In this document: piece by piece, positions 13,001 through 60,519 of the stretch
How the letters are laid out: each line of letters begins with the position of its first letter
Numbering within the stretch: the stretch's first letter is position 1
NCBI RefSeq assembly: GCF_004010195.1
Contig: NC_057718.1
Coordinates: forward strand, 66,225,351 to 66,289,350
Direction: 5' to 3'
DNA from: Chiloscyllium plagiosum
Lineage: Eukaryota
Length of the DNA stretch: 64,000 nucleotides
Position numbers and translations under genes: made by a program
Notes under the pieces: model-generated
What the model saw: the letters and a program-made list of their open reading frames with translations, nothing else
What the model was told of the DNA's origin: nothing
The model's database searches: none

Positions 13001-16000
13001 GTGGGTGGTAGGAACAGTCAGGTGAGTGATTTTTGGCTAAAGAGTGGTTGCACTTTTTCAAATTGCACACGTGGTCGTGTTGGAAAGTTATTTCCCAAGT
13101 GGATTTTTTTTCACAGTACAACATTTTGTTTCAGTTGGTTTAGATTTCAGCATCATTAAGTCTGGTCAGACTGAGGAATTAGAAAAATCTGTGGAAAATC
13201 TCAATTCATCCATTCCACAGGAGAAAGGGTGCCCAGTCAAAGATTAAAACACACTTTGTTGAGTCACAGATGTGTTGGCAGAAAAGCTATGTGATGTGGA
13301 TAACTGATGGGTAAAAAATTAATCATTTTAAAAATAATTAGTAGAACAAAGCCTAAAAGATAGGAGAAACCAACTGTTCCACTTTAATTCTAATTAGTTT
13401 GTATAGTAACCCCATTAACAATTTAACTAGCAGAACAACCAAACTCTCTTCCTTTTTAATATTGTACTCATCCTGCAATGGTCCCTGAAGACACTTTTAA
13501 CTCTGGGCCTTGCACTAAACCAGCAGAGCTGTAGGCAGTTATGCTGTTGTGTTTGTAATTTTAAAACATCATTACATTCCTGATTGATCCCCAGCATATT
13601 TAAAAAAAAACTCTATTATACTAACTTGCACAAGAATGTTAATTAAGATCAGTCTAGGCTAAATTGAGTTTCATCTGTGGGATTTTAATTTTTTTTACTG
13701 GTCGTTGCACTCTTCAATAACATGATTCAGATCTGAATCAAGATAATTAAATATTGTCAATTTTTGTATATAGTCTAATTTTTTTTTGACCCTAACACAC
13801 ACACATTCTCTTGGACAATGAATACATTCTTACACTGTGAGCTAGGAGAGTGAACACGCAATGTTGCAGTGTACATCCTGGGTTTTTAAAGTTCAAAATA
13901 TAAGGAAATTTGAATTTGACTTGAAATATTTAGAACTCTACATCCCCGTTTCTCTCAGAACTAATTTTATTTAATTTTGTTGCACAAAATGTAGAAAGCT
14001 GTTTTATGGATTCAAATACGTTGCAAAATAATGAAAAGTTTTTGAGTCCAGTATTATGTTAATTTCACAAATTCAGATTTCCAGTTAAATGTCTTGTGCA
14101 AAATTTAGATCCCAATATTGCTCAAAATTGATTCTTGTCAGAGGGCTGTGTAATCCTGCTTGGGGAGATGGAGTGAAGAGATCACAAGGATGTAGCTAAG
14201 CAATCCACAGAAATGTCAATCGGTTCACGTTTTGGGTTACAAAAGCACAATGTTAATAGCCTCTGAGTTGATCAGCCTGTTTATGTATTGTAAGAGGTTA
14301 CAGGTTATAGGTACTCACTTTTAACTGTGATCCATTCTAATGGGTTTGCATTATAATGAAGGATAATTACCATCCTTCATTGTTTCTAAAATTAGTCGCT
14401 TTATCTTCAGTGAAATTTAATATTTCACCCTTAAATTAAAGTATTTCCAGATAAGCTGGATGGATGGGGGGTAATCCATCCTTAGGTTTCAACAATTTAA
14501 TTATTTTAATGTCTCATTTCCTTTTAAGAACTCATCACTGCTGAATTTTCATCCCTTTTATTCTCCCTCGTGCTAAATGTGTATATGCAGCTTTCTCTAA
14601 AACTGATTGTGTAATAAAATCTTGATTTTTAAACCATAGTAACTATATGCTTTATTAACTGCTCTGTCCATCTGTCTGACTGCCTTCAATGATCTATCCA
14701 TATATACACCCCAGGTCCATCTGCTCTTGCACCCCTTTTAGAATTGACCTCCTATTCTTTCAATGTTCTTCCTACCAAAATGCATCACCACACACTTGTC
14801 TGCATTGAAATCCATCTGACACCTATCCACCCATTTCTACTTACCTGGAATTAATTTTTGGGGCCTTGTGATCACATCAGAGACAATTGACCAATTGTAA
14901 GCAATTTTCAAAAAGCCTATTAAAAGTTTTTAAGCAGCAGCTGAGATACAATACACTATCCTATTAGAAAATAAATACATAACCTGTGAATCCTTAACAG
15001 TTGTTCAATGGGTATCATGACCTCCTCAATGATTCTTGTGATTCTCCCCTGTTGGTTAATATGCGAGAAACTTGGAAAGTTTGTTACTGGTGTAATAGTT
15101 AAATAAAATCTCGTGCTACACAGTAAGTATTGGAAATTCAGTTTTAAAGGAATGTGTTCTCTTTTTGGAGTTCTACACTGTCCTCACATTTTATAACCAT
15201 CCAAATGGCCCCTGCATACCAAGATCTAGATCGTTAATATATGTCAGGGAAAGCAAGGATCCTTTTAACCATACTCTGGGGAACTTCACTACAAATCTTC
15301 CCTCAGCCTGAAAAACATTCATTGACCACTACTTATGTTTCCTATCACTCAGCCAATTTTCGTATTCACGTTACTACCGTTCCTTTATTCCACCAGCTGT
15401 AACTTTAACTTGGCTGTAGAACTAATTATTAAGTGAGTTTAAATATCACCTGTGATTGCTAGTTCTCAAACATTTCAAAGATCTCATATTTGGACAAAGA
15501 CTTGGAGCTGTTTTGATCTGTTAACACTAAGTACTGTATATTCACTTTTTTGTTTTCTTGGGACAAGTGTACTCTGACTACAGTAAACATCAAAATGTTT
15601 CTCCATGATATGGCTTGTGTTTCACGCATCTGCATAAAGTCAGCAATCTCTATTGAGGCATTACATGGTCCTGCTTCTTGGAGGTCTTCCCTTGTAAATC
15701 CGTCTGTAATAAAGCTTCACTTTGCTTGGTATGACTGATCGAAAATCAAATTAGTGAGAAATTGTTTTGATTCTAATATTTCCCATGTAGGATCATTGTA
15801 CCTATCAGCAACAGCTTCTGCAACAACAGGAGTTGTTGACATATTTGCAGTCATACAAATTCAGTGCAGAGTTCAGGTTATAGAAAGGCATCATCAAGCC
15901 ACGGAGAAATAGCAAGCTCCAGTGCTGCCACACAGACTACAGAGGGAGAAGTTGCAGGCAGGAGTCCTCCTCACAATGCAGAGGGTATTGAGGGGACCAG

Positions 16001-23891: not shown

Positions 23892-24373
23892 GCAGGAGCT
23901 ATGCCGCTAATCTTATGGTCGCCATATAAATTTTGTATTTGCCAAAAGCTAAACGTCTAACAATTATAACTACGTTTATTCATGATTTCTGAGCAGTTGA
24001 GTTAAATCAAATTTTGCCATACATAAGTTATACAATGAAATATGTTTGGCAGGTGCGACCTTTTTAAAAAAAGCATTCTATAATCAGTTGTTGTATTCTA
24101 CTGAAATGCACTGCCGCCTTAGTAGATTTTGCTCTTGTACCATCATGCATAGTGTAAGTTGAGAATTGTTGGGTTGTTGTACTCAAGCCCAGTTCCTGTA
24201 ACACCACAGACAGCCACTCCTTTGTATTTTGTCACTAACTGCTTGCTGTTGGCAGTGATGTCTCCCCAGGAGGTAGAAGAACAAGGTTATGCATCTCTCT
24301 GCAGGAGCTATGCCACTAATCTTATGGTCACAATATAAATTTTGTATTTGCCGAAAGCTAAACTTCTAACAAT
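23892..24373 (+). repeat. Dispersed 73-bp direct repeat (23892-23964 and 24301-24373)
   Basis: 68 of 73 positions identical by direct comparison. Confidence 0.9.
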
Positions 24374-24896
24374 GATTCAGACTACATCTGTTGCATTCTG
24401 TGCCTCTTACTGTTGTGTATAATATTGCAGGAAACAAAAGGTGCAAAATGTAATTATGCTCTCTGTAATTGAAAGTTAGCCACAACAAAGAAGTAATTTC
24501 ATTTGATCTACATACAGTCTATGATATTAATGAATGGCTTTGTTTAAAATATAATTGAGTCAGACAAGAAAGGGCATATATAAGCAATAATTGGCACCTG
24601 CTTGCGAGTTTATTATTTCAAATAGCAATTCACTGTCCAACACAGCATGTGAACTCTTCAAAGAAGACTCTGATATTACTTAATCTCATCGTGTATTATG
24701 CAGACTTACCTGATTTATTTTCTACAACATGACTAAACATCATATTGTAGTTTGGAAAATCAGTATTACTTGGCAATAACACCTTGCATGTCATCAGCAC
24801 TGAAATATAATATAAAATACATGTTCTGTTGTAGAGCAGTTTGATGCCTAGTTGTACAGTTCTTGGTCCAGGGTAGATCTGACTCCAAAGAGAGGA

Positions 24897-25647: not shown

Positions 25648-27252
25648 GACCATAGGACAATAAGACATAGGAGCGGAAGTAAGACCATTCGGCCCATCGA
25701 GTCCACTCCGCCATGGGTGACGGGCATTTCAACTCCACTTACCCGCATTCTCCCCATAGCCCTTAATTCCTTGTGACATCAAGAATTTATCAATTTCTGC
25801 CTTGAAGACATTTAGCGTCCCAGCCTCCACTGCACTCTGTGGCAATGAATTCCACAGGCCCACCACTCTCTGGCTGAAGAAATGTCTCCGCATTTCTGTT
25901 CTGAATTTACCCCCTCTAATTCTAAGGCTGTGTCCACGGGTCCTAGTCTCCTCGCCTAACGGAAACAATTTCCTAGCGTCCACCCTCTCCAAGCCATCTC
26001 TCAAGGAATTAAGGGATATGGGGAGAGTGCGGGTAAGTGGCGTTGAAATGCCCATCAGCCATGATTGAATGACGGAGTGGACTCGATGGGCNNNNNNNNN
26101 NNNNNNNNNNNNNNNNNNNNNNNNNNNNNNNNNNNNNNNNNNNNNNNNNNNNNNNNNNNNNNNNNNNNNNNNNNNNNNNNNNNNNNNNNNNNNNNNNNNN
26201 NNNNNNNNNNNNNNNNNNNNNNNNNNNNNNNNNNNNNNNNNNNNNNNNNNNNNNNNNNNNNNNNNNNNNNNNNNNNNNNNNNNNNNNNNNNNNNNNNNNN
26301 NNNNNNNNNNNNNNNNNNNNNNNNNNNNNNNNNNNNNNNNNNNNNNNNNNNNNNNNNNNNNNNNNNNNNNNNNNNNNNNNNNNNNNNNNNNNNNNNNNNN
26401 NNNNNNNNNNNNNNNNNNNNNNNNNNNNNNNNNNNNNNNNNNNNNNNNNNNNNNNNNNNNNNNNNNNNNNNNNNNNNNNNNNNNNNNNNNNNNNNNNNNN
26501 NNNNNNNNNNNNNNNNNNNNNNNNNNNNNNNNNNNNNNNNNNNNNNNNNNNNNNNNNNNNNNNNNNNNNNNNNNNNNNNNNNNNNNNNNNNNNNNNNNNN
26601 NNNNNNNNNNNNNNNNNNNNNNNNNNNNNNNNNNNNNNNNNNNNNNNNNNNNNNNNNNNNNNNNNNNNNNNNNNNNNNNNNNNNNNNNNNNNNNNNNNNN
26701 NNNNNNNNNNNNNNNNNNNNNNNNNNNNNNNNNNNNNNNNNNNNNNNNNNNNNNNNNNNNNNNNNNNNNGGGGTTACAACAGCGGTCTTCCAATCATCCG
26801 GGACTTTCCCTGACTCCAGTGATTTTTGAAAGATCTCAACCAACGCCTCAGCTATTTCCTCAGCTTCCTCCCTCAGAACTCTAGGATGTAGCCCATTGGG
26901 GCTAGGAGATTTATCAATTTTAAGACCTTTTAGGTTTTCTAGCACTTTCTCTTTTGTAATGGCAACCATACTCAACTCAGCCCCCTGACTCCCTTTAATT
27001 GTTGGGATATTACTCATGTCTTCCAATGTGAAGACTGACGCAAAGTACTTATTAAGTTCTCCTGCTATTTCCTTATCTCCCATCACTAGGCTTCCAGCAT
27101 CAGTTTGAAGTGGCCCAATGTCTACTCTTGCCTGTCGTTTGTTTCTTATGTATTGAAATAAACTTTTCCTATCATTTCTAATATTACTGGCTAGCCTACC
27201 TTCATATTTGATCCTCTCCTTCCTTATTTCTCTCTTTGTTATCCTCTGTTTT
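25648..27252 (-). mobile_element. Young CR1 LINE spanning the assembly gap
   Basis: Open RT-upstream frame at 26770-27250 (KSPSPNGLHPRVLRE..GKVPDDWK) and C-terminus (TRGHSLRIRG..WNSLP) plus tail at 25648-25995. Confidence 0.85.
26092..26769. other. Assembly gap (678 N)
   Basis: Run of N. Confidence 1.
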
Positions 27253-34898: not shown

Positions 34899-35265
34899 TG
34901 TAGATTTGATCTGAGATGGGTAAGGCAGGTGGTGGTCAATAGGCTTGCAATATTGTATTGAGAAAGTAAACTACTGTTCTTGGACCATTTCTCCCCCACC
35001 CCACCACTTTTCAGGTGGTGCACACACGACATATGGTGAGATTGGGGGAAGGGATGGATTCAGGCGGGAGTGGAGGAGGGTTCCAGAAGGCCTTGGGTAC
35101 CTCCCAAGTTGATGTATCTTGTGAGCCTTGATGCCTGAAAGGAAAAGAGAAAGTTTCTTGTTAGCACAGAAGGGACCAGATGATGAAGTGAAACTGTGGA
35201 GTGGTGCAACCCTGAGCAGCATAATGCATTGCTGTTGGAGAGAGAGGTCAAGAGTGAGCATATGA

Positions 35266-35501
35266 TGCTGCATGGCACTGAGTGTGGATCTTAGGATATG
35301 GTGAGAGCAACTGTCTGTGGAATGTTTAGCATCCCAGATACCTGTGATCTCAGGTGAATTCCAAGCACGAGGGATGAAACTGGAATGCTGCATGGCACTG
35401 AGTGTGGATCTTAGGATATGGTGAGAGCATCTGTGGAATGTTTAGCATCCCAGATACCTGTGATCTCAGGTGGATTCCAAGCACGAGGGATGAAACTGGA
35501 A
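35266..35501 (+). repeat. Tandem duplication, 120-bp and 116-bp units
   Basis: The units differ by a 4-bp deletion and one substitution. Confidence 0.95.
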
Positions 35502-47245: not shown

Positions 47246-47666
47246 GAGGGGAGCGATGAACAAGTGGGAACAGGGTGTCGGGTGATGGGAATGGTGAGCA
47301 GGAAGGGATAAGGGAGAGCTGGAAAGAGAAGAGACAGGAAGTGCTTTATAAAAGCAGACTAAGCATGTACAAGTATGGCACAGTTCTTGGCGCATCTGTA
47401 GAAATTGCGCTAAAATGAAAATGGACATCATGGGGCCATGGCTGGCACAACTATTCAGATAAGTTCCCTAATTTGCAAACTGCTCAAACAAAGCACACTG
47501 CAAGAAGACACTTTAAATGATGGATGTGTGTGTTCCAAAGGGTAGTTATCCCTGGTGTCCTGGCCAAACTTTATCCCTCCAACTAATCAGATGATCTAGT
47601 CATTATTGCACTTTTATTTTAAGAATTGGTTTCCAACAATACAGCAGTTGACTGCGTTTTAATAAA

Positions 47667-49194
47667 TTAACCTGGATTTGGTTGCAAGAAAGCGAATTAT
47701 CCATGCATGTGGCTAATCTTATCATACTTACCTGGTACCCATGAATTATGTTTCTTAATACTTGTGTAGTCCTTGTACCCTCCTACCCACCTTTCCCGTT
47801 CTTTCTTCCTTTTTTTTTCTTCCATTTCTACAGCTGAATTTGGACAGTTGAGACTTCCATAAAACTCTATAACCTGGGTGCTTTGTAGCCGAGCAAAACA
47901 GATGATATCTGTGACTCCTCACTTCATCCCATTAACCGTGCCCTATCATCATCATCAAGTAAATCTTAAATAAACTACCAAACTAGAATGTTCTGACAAA
48001 ACATTCAGAGCTTTGGGGTGGCATGGTAGCTCAGTGCTTAGCACTGTTGCCTCAGCACTAGGGACCCGAGTTCGATTCCTGCCTCTAGCGACTGTGCAAC
48101 TCCACACAGACATTCTCCCCATGTCTGCTTGTTTTCTCTGGGTTCTCTGGTTTCCTCCCACAGTCCAAAAGATATGCAGGTTAGGTGAATTGGCAATGCT
48201 AAATTGTCCATTGTGTTCAGGGATGTGTAGGTTAGGTGCATTTAGACAGGGGAATGGGTCTGGGTGGGTTACTCTTCAAAGGGTTGATGTGGACTTGGGC
48301 CAAAGGACCTGTTTCCACACTGTCGGGATTCTAATTCTCAAAATTATTTATACCTGCAAATTGAATGTATGAATGATTTTAAATACTGTTATAGTCTATT
48401 AGAACTCTTAATTATGATTTTAATTTAGATTTGCAGTATTGAAGCTCTAAACTTTAAAATTAATCCTGTAGTATGGAATTTCTTAAGTCTAAACAGTTTA
48501 ACAACTGAATTCTTGCATTTTTCTCTCAAAGATTTACATACTTAGCCTCATGTTGTGATACAGGAAGCATATAGATTCATGATGACGTTCCTGCATCTGC
48601 TTGTAATAAACTCCTACAGAAATTGTGTTTCCTTTTGTATTTGGATTTAGGAGAGGAGATGTTTGAGGTGAATGAAACAAATATTGAAGGGGCACCAACA
48701 ATTGAGCTGAGTGGACTGAAATTATCAAACTAAACTTTCATAAATAGAAATGTTTGTTGCTTTTAAACATTGCCTTGACTCAGTAACATTTTAAACATTG
48801 TATGAACATGGAAATTCTGTGGCAGAGTTGAATTCACTACTTAATTCGTATTGAATCATTCAAACTCCCTTGACAGCCCAAGGTCTAGCGTGACTGAAAC
48901 ATTTTAGACTGAAAGTTGTGGTTTCAATCTACAGTCTGTACTCGCTCAGCTAATCCCAGCCTAGGCAGCAGTTAAAACCACACAATTATCCTCAGCTTTG
49001 GGCTACAAAGATTAAAACAAAGTTGGGCTCCTTAGCTTGGCCAGCTTTCTGTAGCCTCTTGTGAGCATCCTGTGAAGGCAGAATCTCATCATTCTCAGGT
49101 ACCTCTACCCTACCACAGTGCTTTGTTAGGTAAGTATGATAAGATTAGCCACATGCATGGATAATTCGCTTTCTTGCAACCAAATCCAGGTTAA
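47667..49194. repeat. Perfect 67-bp inverted repeat pair (47667-47733 / 49128-49194)
   Basis: Exact reverse-complement match checked base by base; outer ends TTAA. Confidence 0.97.
48015..48335 (+). mobile_element. HE1-type SINE, diverged
   Basis: A box (tagctcagtgcttag), B box (gagttcgattcc), typical body and tail. Confidence 0.88.
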
Positions 49195-50709
49195 GTGCCC
49201 CAAGGGGGAGGAAGACCCATTAATAGAACTTCACTGGTACAAGATTTTCATGGAGACTGATAGTGTTAGTAAACGTAGGATGTGGGTTTCTTCTGGGATT
49301 TGAATTCCACTTGTCCAGTAATCAACTGTCTGTAATTGACCACCACTCTCTTCTTTTGTAGGTGAGGTTTTTGAACAATATTGTTGTCCAGGTTGTCATT
49401 TTGTGAATAGGCAGACATCTGTTCCAATCTGTCATTTAAAGGGAGCAAATTTCATTTGCCGCAAAATCAGGAGCATAAGGCACTCATTTTAGTCACTGCT
49501 GTTCACACCTACAGACCATTTTAGGAAACACTGAGTGAAAAGGACTTGCCTCCACATGTGTGCACTCAACAGCTCTTGAAGGTTAATACCGGCGTTTTAG
49601 CCTGATTGGGCTTTTCTATTTGAAAGTATATTTTAAAATTTTTAATGTTTAGAGTATCAGGAATGTTGGAAATGCTTATTTGGCCCTGTTCCTACTACCT
49701 CATCCCTATCCCTGTCCAGCTGCTGCTATGCATTCCACTTCAGCTTGGATGAAACATTGCACATGATAGTTCACATAAGAAACAAAAACCAATAGTTGAA
49801 ATTGAAAATAAGTCAAACTTGAAAAACTTTCATACATGTTCATCAGAATTGTTGTGGTCTCATTATAGTTAGTGTAAAAACAATGCATTTTAAATGTATT
49901 GTGAGAGTTTTTGATACAAAAAAAGGAAGAACTATCATTAGGAAGTAGTAAATCTATTTTGTGTAAGAAGGCAATAGATAATAGAGCTAACTTAATTCTA
50001 TGTTAGCTTGCCGTTTATTAGAAAAGTAGGTGGAACTATTCAAGATGGAAAAAAAATCTACACACTCTATCACAATTTTTGCATAACTTCTACCCAAGTT
50101 CTTGAGTGGTGATGAGGTCAGAGAAAGAAAAATTCAGTATTTTGGGGAGCGTGCTCATGCTCCTGAATTGTAGGTAAGGAAAAGCAATTGTATGCTGGAC
50201 CCAAATTTGAATCCTGGAAAATGACTGAGAAAATGATCTAACCTGTGATTTAGATTCTGCATGAGTAACATCAGAGGTTGCGGGACAATAGATAAAGTAT
50301 TTCAAAAACAGAAATGTTGGCAAAAGATAAGACTACTGTATGGAATATCTAAGTTTTTGTTTTCTCTTTGTCTTTAAGGCATGAGTATGATTAGTGACTT
50401 GTGTGTACTCATACCAGAATCTGGCCTCGAACAGAATACAAATCAGATGTTGTCCACATCAGATGGTGGCTTTCAACCAAATGGATTAAAACAATAATTT
50501 CCAGATAACTGGCAAAACTACTGGAAAACATTCATCATGTCCAAAAATATTTTTAAAGTCACCTTTTTTGATGTTACAGAAATTAAATGTTCTAGGATTC
50601 AATGATTAATGCAATAGCATCAAACCCCTCATGGCAGAAGATAACAACATTCTGATATTCACTTATGATTCTCTTAATTGTCCTTTAACTTTTTGTTTTG
50701 TTTGCCCAG

Positions 50710-59500: not shown

Positions 59501-60519
59501 GGAAATTAAGCCCTGCTATTCCTGGGCTTGTCACAAAAGTTAAATGTGTTACGGAATTGTGAAAAATTTCTTCAGTCTACCTGTTTGTAGACCAAAGTTG
59601 GCAGAAAGTATGGGCCAGGTTTCTCTACTCAATAATTGTTCCTACTTCTTACAAATAAATCGATTCTTGCTATAGGTAAACGTTATGAACAATTGATATA
59701 TAACTCTACTAGTTAATCTCTAACCACTTTATAAAATTCCCTTTGCGTGTGCACACAGGCAAAGAAAAAGGTGTTATGGGTAGAGGGAAAAACTAGGAAG
59801 ACAGTTCAATTATTCTTTTTCCACTATGTTCATAGAGATGATCCTTTGGCTGGCTCGGATCTGCTGCTGCTCAATCTCTGTCCTCTGTATATGTTCAGGA
59901 GGCACAGTGACTGGTTCATACATGTGATCACTGACACAGCTTACATAATTGGTGAGGGGAATAAATTGGTGGTCTTCAGGCTTAGCTTTTTATTTAAAAC
60001 TGCAGAGAAAAGGACACCAGTTTCCCTTCCAGAAGTTTTTGACCAAGTCATTTACATTCACAAGCTGTTCAGTTACCTTGCAGCCAATCCCATTGTTATT
60101 GGCAGAGCAGGCAAAAGATCATTGACAACTGCTCAACACTCCTCAGACCAAGCAGCTACTGATGGCCATGTCACAATTTGTGGACACGTGCTGGTACCAG
60201 TGTGCTGCAACCAAATTTCTGCACTGGTTGAACAAACAGCAGTGCAAACAGCACTTGAAGTAAGATCTGGTTGCGTGCTTTTTAAAAAAAAATGCAGCAA
60301 TCCCTTCCACAATCCTTAGTTTTTAAAACAAATTTTACCAATTTCAGTCCGTAATCAACAGTACAGAAAAATTAATAAATATGGTTTTGACATTCTGTAG
60401 ATTTACAGGTTAGATTCAGTAATCTTAAATACTAATCTAGGCCAAAAAATCTAGTTCAGAAAAACTGATTTTGTTTAAACTACAAATTTGCTTAAATATG
60501 TATTTCTGCTGCATCTGTT

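Follow-up and report, generated by a model that had tools for sequence, protein, structure and literature searches.

A perfect 67-bp inverted repeat with one arm as a young, apparently segregating inverted copy of a nearby 66-nt segment

The window, that is the whole stretch of 64,000 nucleotides analysed here, contains a perfect inverted repeat whose upstream arm is a young copy of the segment 49129-49194, placed in reverse orientation 1.4 kb away and apparently segregating in species A, to which the window belongs. This copy probably arose by a DNA template switch or a break patch, in one recent mutational event in the germline of species A.

Structure and ancestral state of the inverted repeat

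The original prediction described a perfect 67-bp inverted repeat, and indeed 47667-47733 and 49128-49194 are reverse-complementary at 67 of 67 nt, with sharp edges. The coordinates also bear out the claimed distance of 1394 nt between the arms, TTAA is present at both outer ends (47667-47670 and 49191-49194), and the enclosed SINE was rightly called diverged when compared with three other copies in the window (identities are listed below). Outside both arms the similarity falls to background in a self-comparison of the window, and about 1e-30 repeats of this kind would be expected by chance in 64 kb. Within the 64-kb window a third copy of the arm was not found, and Rfam gave no match at the gathering score. 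Contigs derived from raw reads support the repeat as well, in that the 67-mer is a collapsed repeat in the same-species run X1. The features of the locus are as follows:

47667 to 47732, plus strand: derived 66-nt segment, reverse-complement copy of 49129-49194, which replaces 21 other letters of the relatives (net +45 nt)
47733, plus strand: single base common to the old flank and the template (1-nt microhomology), which pairs with 49128 and extends the arm to 67 nt
47734 to 47755, plus strand: inner flank that is complementary in patches (17 of 24 columns) to 49080-49103, a segment lying 24 nt ahead of where the copy begins
47734 to 49127, no strand: spacer, ancestral DNA rather than cargo, in the same order in B and C
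about 47996 to 48343, plus strand: old tRNA-type SINE copy, which predates the repeat, 72.7-74.2% identical to the other copies
49126 to 49127, plus strand: T-run adjoining the source boundary; the window has one base fewer here than the X1, B and C contigs
49128 to 49194, plus strand: source segment and downstream arm, ancestral and single-copy, in place in all three species
49171, plus strand: dating site, T in the window and in X1, C in both relatives

The SINE presumably belongs to an HE1-like family, and contigs of the locus in B and C extend into it from either side. The orientation of the spacer in carriers is given by the assembly path only; k up to 67 cannot resolve this orientation.

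Twenty runs of three organisms contain the stretch, namely runs of A (shared words 0.60-0.92), B (0.40-0.42) and C (0.27). Contigs over 47500-49600 were obtained from four of 24 runs, X1 (A), X9 (B), X16 (C) and the RNA run X21 (A), and the scope of the comparison is one same-species genomic run and one run per relative. The shared words (0.42 vs 0.27) together with the difference counts given below point to the tree ((A,B),C).

In B, record 16 covers 47502-47666 (record positions 335-500) and 47733-48046 (1-313) with 21 letters between the two parts. Record 9 of C likewise covers 47502-47666 (407-574) and 47733-48120 (1-385) with 21 letters between them, and the alignments of the B, C and X1 contigs all restart at 47733. 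The depth of the upstream-arm bin (47642-47712) is 2.35 in B and 7.73 in C, and the values computed from the flank alone are 2.35 and 7.75. Unbroken contigs of both relatives hold the spacer together with the downstream arm (48296-49599 in B, 48309-49600 in C), and the depth of this arm (5.9 in B, 29.4 in C) equals that of its neighbours, which indicates that it is single-copy. According to the original prediction, one arm only in orthologs would support a recent templated inverted copy, and this is what was found, since B and C possess the downstream arm only. Because both relatives have the spacer and the downstream arm and 21 other letters at the upstream site, the upstream arm is, as judged from the contigs, the newcomer, and the downstream arm is old.

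B differs from the window at 34 of 1304 positions (approximately 2.6%) and C at 41 of 1292 positions (approximately 3.2%). The dating site gives a relative age for the copy. Its partner in the upstream arm, 47690, is complementary to the derived T, and therefore the copy is younger than the change at 49171 in the A lineage. The stretch 48894-49095 is apparently free of variants, which was considered as a sign of conservation and rejected, since the variant table comprises the best 40 of 116 rows and, for the long contigs, 13 of 34 differences in B and 25 of 41 in C. Compared to the window and X1, both relatives have 8 extra letters at 47779, which is 46 nt away from the insertion; this is apparently a small deletion in the A line that is older than the insertion. 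In the joint table of contigs, SINE copies predominate, with 15 of 241 rows listed. A 24-nt flank query against metagenome contigs gave no matches.

The window as a whole is vertebrate DNA rich in repeats, among them LINE remains and tRNA-type SINEs, and other duplications were detected in it. An inverted duplication of 470 nt (503-975 vs 1534-2019, 90.6% identity) takes in sequence that does not look like LINE beside LINE tails (503-745 and about 1760-2019, with 975-1534) and may be an older fold-back or inversion scar. A direct duplication of 76 nt (23892-23967 and 24301-24376, 92% identity, 409 nt apart) is probably an older local templated copy, and approximately 120 nt are duplicated in tandem at 35265-35501 with 95.9% identity. 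Inside a LINE copy there is a gap of 678 N with an inverted overlap just before it (25692-26091 / 26092-26769), which is a sign of short-read scaffolding. The stretches 59735-60319 and 15600-15860 look like coding DNA in decay, with an open frame of 194 aa on the plus strand and broken frames on the minus strand, and the Pfam scan of these two stretches gave no match.

Two alleles in the same-species run

The contigs of X1 end at 49157 and restart at 49165, in both cases 30 nt into the downstream arm as seen from the respective side, and the depth of the arm, which forms the repeat node, is about 21 (21.0-21.3) compared to 11-12.5 for the single-copy flanks. Since this break pattern and this depth are those of a collapsed repeat, a second copy of the arm is present in the X1 reads. 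On the left side, the X1 contigs terminate at precisely 47666 and resume at precisely 47733, which are the points where B and C diverge.

In a k=31 simulation, whose placeholder allele was built to differ at the first and the last letter and whose counterpart are Logan contigs that are not pure unitigs, mixed alleles reproduced the X1 breaks at all four of four positions (47666, 47733, 49157 and 49165), whereas neither pure state did. With the arm as the only state, breaks are expected at 47696 and 47704, and with no arm, no break is expected at 49157/49165. The depths of two bins can be solved for the two alleles in X1, which assigns approximately 7.9 to the arm allele and 6.4 to its counterpart, assuming that there are no stray contigs in the bins.

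Breaks and depths taken together strongly suggest that X1 contains both alleles, either as a heterozygote or as a mixed sample. Most likely, X1 is a heterozygote that carries the upstream arm on one haplotype; since X1 may be the source sample of the assembly, it does not amount to proof from another individual. At 48887, 49126-49127 and 49274, within approximately 1840 nt covered by X1 pieces, the window deviates from all of X1, B and C. These three differences private to the window, one substitution and two one-base losses, are either variants peculiar to the assembled haplotype or errors of the assembly.

Origin of the copy and alternative explanations

In the probable course of events, a break or a replication restart would have occurred at 47667 with the loss of 21 bp. 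DNA synthesis would then have left its template, copied 66 nt of the opposite sense of 49129-49194, and rejoined the far side of the gap, leaving the source intact and one inverted repeat as the result. In four-point notation this would be a 1-4-3-2 / 3-2-1-4 event. The youth of the copy accounts for the perfect match of the arms, and the upstream TTAA is simply the copied last four bases of the source. We infer a DNA template with either a polymerase switch (of the MMBIR/FoSTeS or polymerase-theta type) or the capture of a copied fragment; the sequence does not allow the enzyme itself to be named. In all likelihood, the allele is neutral.

The ancestor already contained the sequence of which the derived segment is an exact reverse complement, and the direction of the change is polarised by B and C and by position 49171. 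There are also aspects that count against a template switch. The junction microhomology is thin, with 0 nt at the outer junction and a single nucleotide at the inner one, and fits such a switch poorly; in the available part of PMC8421209, at least 1 nt of microhomology is given for 138 of 155 and 135 of 148 resolvable germline MMB-TI junctions. The 1.4-kb jump exceeds the "short-range" events for which such surveys were designed. The start of the copy 1-2 nt before a strong donor is left to chance by the model (approximately 5% given a donor in the copy), and an inversion would yield identical junctions. As for priming, the homeology score of the inner flank is matched by 1.9-18% of null segments (nine parameter sets) and that of the outer junction by 44%; the homeology at the inner flank may thus fit microhomeology priming, but marginally. 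A target-primed LINE insertion was considered too and was rejected, since there is no duplication and no tail and 21 bp were lost.

Instead of an insertion, the locus could have undergone a 1.46-kb inversion (47733-49194), with a staggered break on the right and a blunt break with the 21-bp loss on the left. Fill-in would then have duplicated the 66-67 nt between the nicks, the spacer would be flipped in carriers, and the window would combine two haplotypes in a mosaic path. An inversion shares both new junctions and every k-mer up to k=67 with an insertion, and the near-blunt joins fit end joining after fill-in, as in the model found in the accessible text of PMC1885836, where the shortest staggered-break duplication is 46 bp. 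Moreover, one T is missing from the window right at the source boundary, where fill-in would begin. However, the spacer is in ancestral orientation in the assembly, so that an inversion requires a mis-join, and the missing T is one of the three window-private differences in about 1840 nt and may be unrelated to any inversion. We therefore regard an inversion as unlikely; k or reads above approximately 69 nt separate the two models.

A different origin is suggested by the position of a donor-like motif in the source. The original prediction noted AG|GTAAGTAT from 49128 after a pyrimidine-rich stretch. The motif with its GT at 49130 is in place, whereas the preceding pyrimidine stretch amounts to a weak acceptor at 49130 (3.1 bits). 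All bits given for splice sites are from a matrix of approximate frequencies, with a cut-off of 7.5 for strong sites. The motifs in question are:

49128 to 49135, plus strand: consensus donor-like motif AG|GTAAGT, with GT at 49130 (11.0 bits)
47726 to 47735, minus strand: new donor-like motif, formed by the join of copy and old flank, with the donor at 47731 (12.6 bits)
14839, 24704, 33157 (-) and 38079 (+): four further AGGTAAGT donor motifs beyond the arms, with no exon identified

The exact 8-mer AGGTAAGT has six matches in the window compared to 2.15 expected, and four of 100 shuffles reach as high a count. Near the minus-strand motif, the 400 nt scanned upstream contain one weak acceptor only (5.1 bits, 47992). 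The resemblance of 47724-47735 to the 5' end of U1 is a consequence of this segment being the reverse complement of a consensus donor; its final two letters belong to the old flank. A fair acceptor motif (7.3 bits) is located at 49119-49129, 11 nt upstream of the donor motif. With the extra base present in the X1, B and C contigs, the stretch from acceptor to donor would comprise 12 nt, keep the frame and look like a microexon.

The search for coding sequence gave no Pfam match at the cut-off in 282 ORFs, comprising 281 of 389 stop-to-stop frames of at least 45 aa in unmasked DNA and one of 39 aa; the 108 frames left out are mostly retroelement-like, and short exons would be missed. Weak matches below the curated cut-off were obtained for nine of 148 frames, and matches at E 0.001 for none of 134. 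A crude exon scan with approximate splice-site frequencies resulted in nine pairs above the cut-off, none of them at either arm. The RNA run X21 (single-cell poly(A), about 2% of it read) covers five of 30 bins, all of them SINE, and gives no evidence either way on donor use, expression or editing.

It is conceivable, if improbable, that the copy is a patch templated in cis by the nascent intron RNA of the locus itself. The 3' end of the plus strand at 47666 would have been extended by a reverse transcriptase on plus-sense intron RNA until it ran off at the first base of the intron (49130), and after one untemplated base it would have been joined to the far end, so that the donor was pasted backwards upstream. 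Synthesis from 47667 stops 1 nt beyond the donor GT, and both direction and end point agree with an RNA template. The end of a random 66-mer falls within 0-2 nt of an equally strong donor in 0.04% of cases, or in approximately 5% given that the repeat was noticed for holding a donor. Strand skew is linked to transcription, and the skews here (T>A in eight of eight bins, G>C in seven of eight) suggest transcription of the plus strand. RNA-derived break patches as such are described in the available part of PMC5110952. However, 49130 gives no sign of use as a donor, with no Pfam match at the cut-off and no strong exon pair ending there, and the donor 8-mer occurs at four other places of the window besides the two arms. 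The extra base equals the G on the exon side, which a DNA template explains directly, and the outer junction has no homology that could have primed synthesis on RNA.

A literature search by titles and the beginnings of abstracts found no RNA-templated copies starting at a donor, by which their absence from print is not shown, and the accessible portion of PMC9457163 has no bearing on such copies. If the template was indeed intron RNA, the locus would matter more, since RNA-templated patches that form naturally in cis are difficult to recognise, and the present patch would bear a run-off mark at the donor. In carriers, a 67-bp RNA duplex would then hide the donor, and the segregating allele would silence a splice site that is not annotated, whether cryptic, micro- or recursive.

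The remaining explanations fare worse still. It is very improbable that the repeat is an assembly artefact. The assembly has an estimated gap of 678 N, X1 could be its source sample, and short junction contigs are not among the rows listed. Against this, the graph derived from the X1 reads collapses the 67-mer, with 1.7-fold depth and with breaks where a second copy predicts them.

We attach as little credence to the idea of a cis-antisense element that evolved to switch splicing by masking the donor. If the plus strand is transcribed, the arms would pair with a mean probability of 0.99 (67 pairs in a 1.58-kb fold, -120 kcal/mol), and the duplex would bury the donor motif and offer an editing substrate in carriers. 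However, the upstream arm is absent in two of two relatives at approximately 2.6% and 3.2% divergence and apparently present on one haplotype only in X1, by which the masking duplex, one of the readings put forward in the original prediction, is refuted as a conserved device. Compensatory changes are impossible to score, and no exon was found. Since both alleles seem to segregate, a heterozygote is a built-in test of what a new 67-bp duplex does to splicing and editing.

Finally, a non-autonomous piggyBac-like element with a TTAA target and captured DNA, as originally proposed, can practically be dismissed. Like piggyBac-derived MITEs, which have TTAA at both outer ends and adjoining CC, the repeat has TTAA at both outer ends followed by CC. 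However, TTAA is palindromic and common (454 sites in the window, 0.7% of positions), and the locus has two TTAA ends because copying one palindromic TTAA gives two. Unlike such MITEs, it has neither an empty site nor a dispersed family: B and C keep the whole interior and one "terminus", the downstream arm with its TTAA, as ancestral sequence, and the arm has single-copy depth in both relatives and 1.7-fold depth in X1 (88% likeness), with no other copy in the window. As the locus illustrates, neither TTAA ends nor a masked donor is proof of a transposon or a switch.

Comparison with known systems

The closest counterparts are template-switch mutations (PMC7954356; 10.1101/2021.11.26.470150). 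In the available part of PMC7954356, the four-point pattern 1-4-3-2 / 3-2-1-4 leaves a single inverted repeat, and according to the accessible text of 10.1101/2021.11.26.470150, template-switch variants segregate in humans, the longest with 318 bp. As in the cases described in these portions, a short stretch is replaced here by the reverse complement of a nearby one with the source left intact, one perfect inverted repeat results and segregates, and the 66-nt copy is within the reported length range. In contrast to them, the template is 1.4 kb off, which is beyond the local range of the methods as far as these texts describe them. In the assembly, the sequence between the switch points is in its ancestral orientation, a point that k=31 contigs cannot resolve.

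MMB-TIs occur as germline variants as well, according to the part of PMC8421209 at hand. The locus shares with them the inverted templated insertion as a germline variant and a possible microhomeology near one junction, but differs in its exact microhomology of 0 and 1 nt only. It also resembles the class 2 TSIPs, as presented in the accessible part of PMC5110952, in being an apparently polymorphic patch of 66 nt without target duplication or poly(A), with a micro-deletion at the target and an intact donor site. Since the templates of the TSIPs in that part are distant, whereas the present one is local (1.4 kb) and inverted, we do not file the copy as a TSIP. With the staggered-break inversions, as far as the available text of PMC1885836 goes, it shares the same two junctions and the duplication of unique sequence at one breakpoint; however, the assembled spacer is not inverted here, and the cases in that text are large inversions in flies. 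A recursive splice site, in the accessible portion of PMC5126111, is a functional acceptor fused to a donor (YAG|GT) inside a long intron; at 49130 the motif TAG|GT is present with a weak acceptor of 3.1 bits.

Overall, the locus appears to be a new case of a known kind of event, a recent templated inverted insertion that is apparently polymorphic. As a natural case, it shows cleanly how a long perfect inverted repeat can result from a single copying error.
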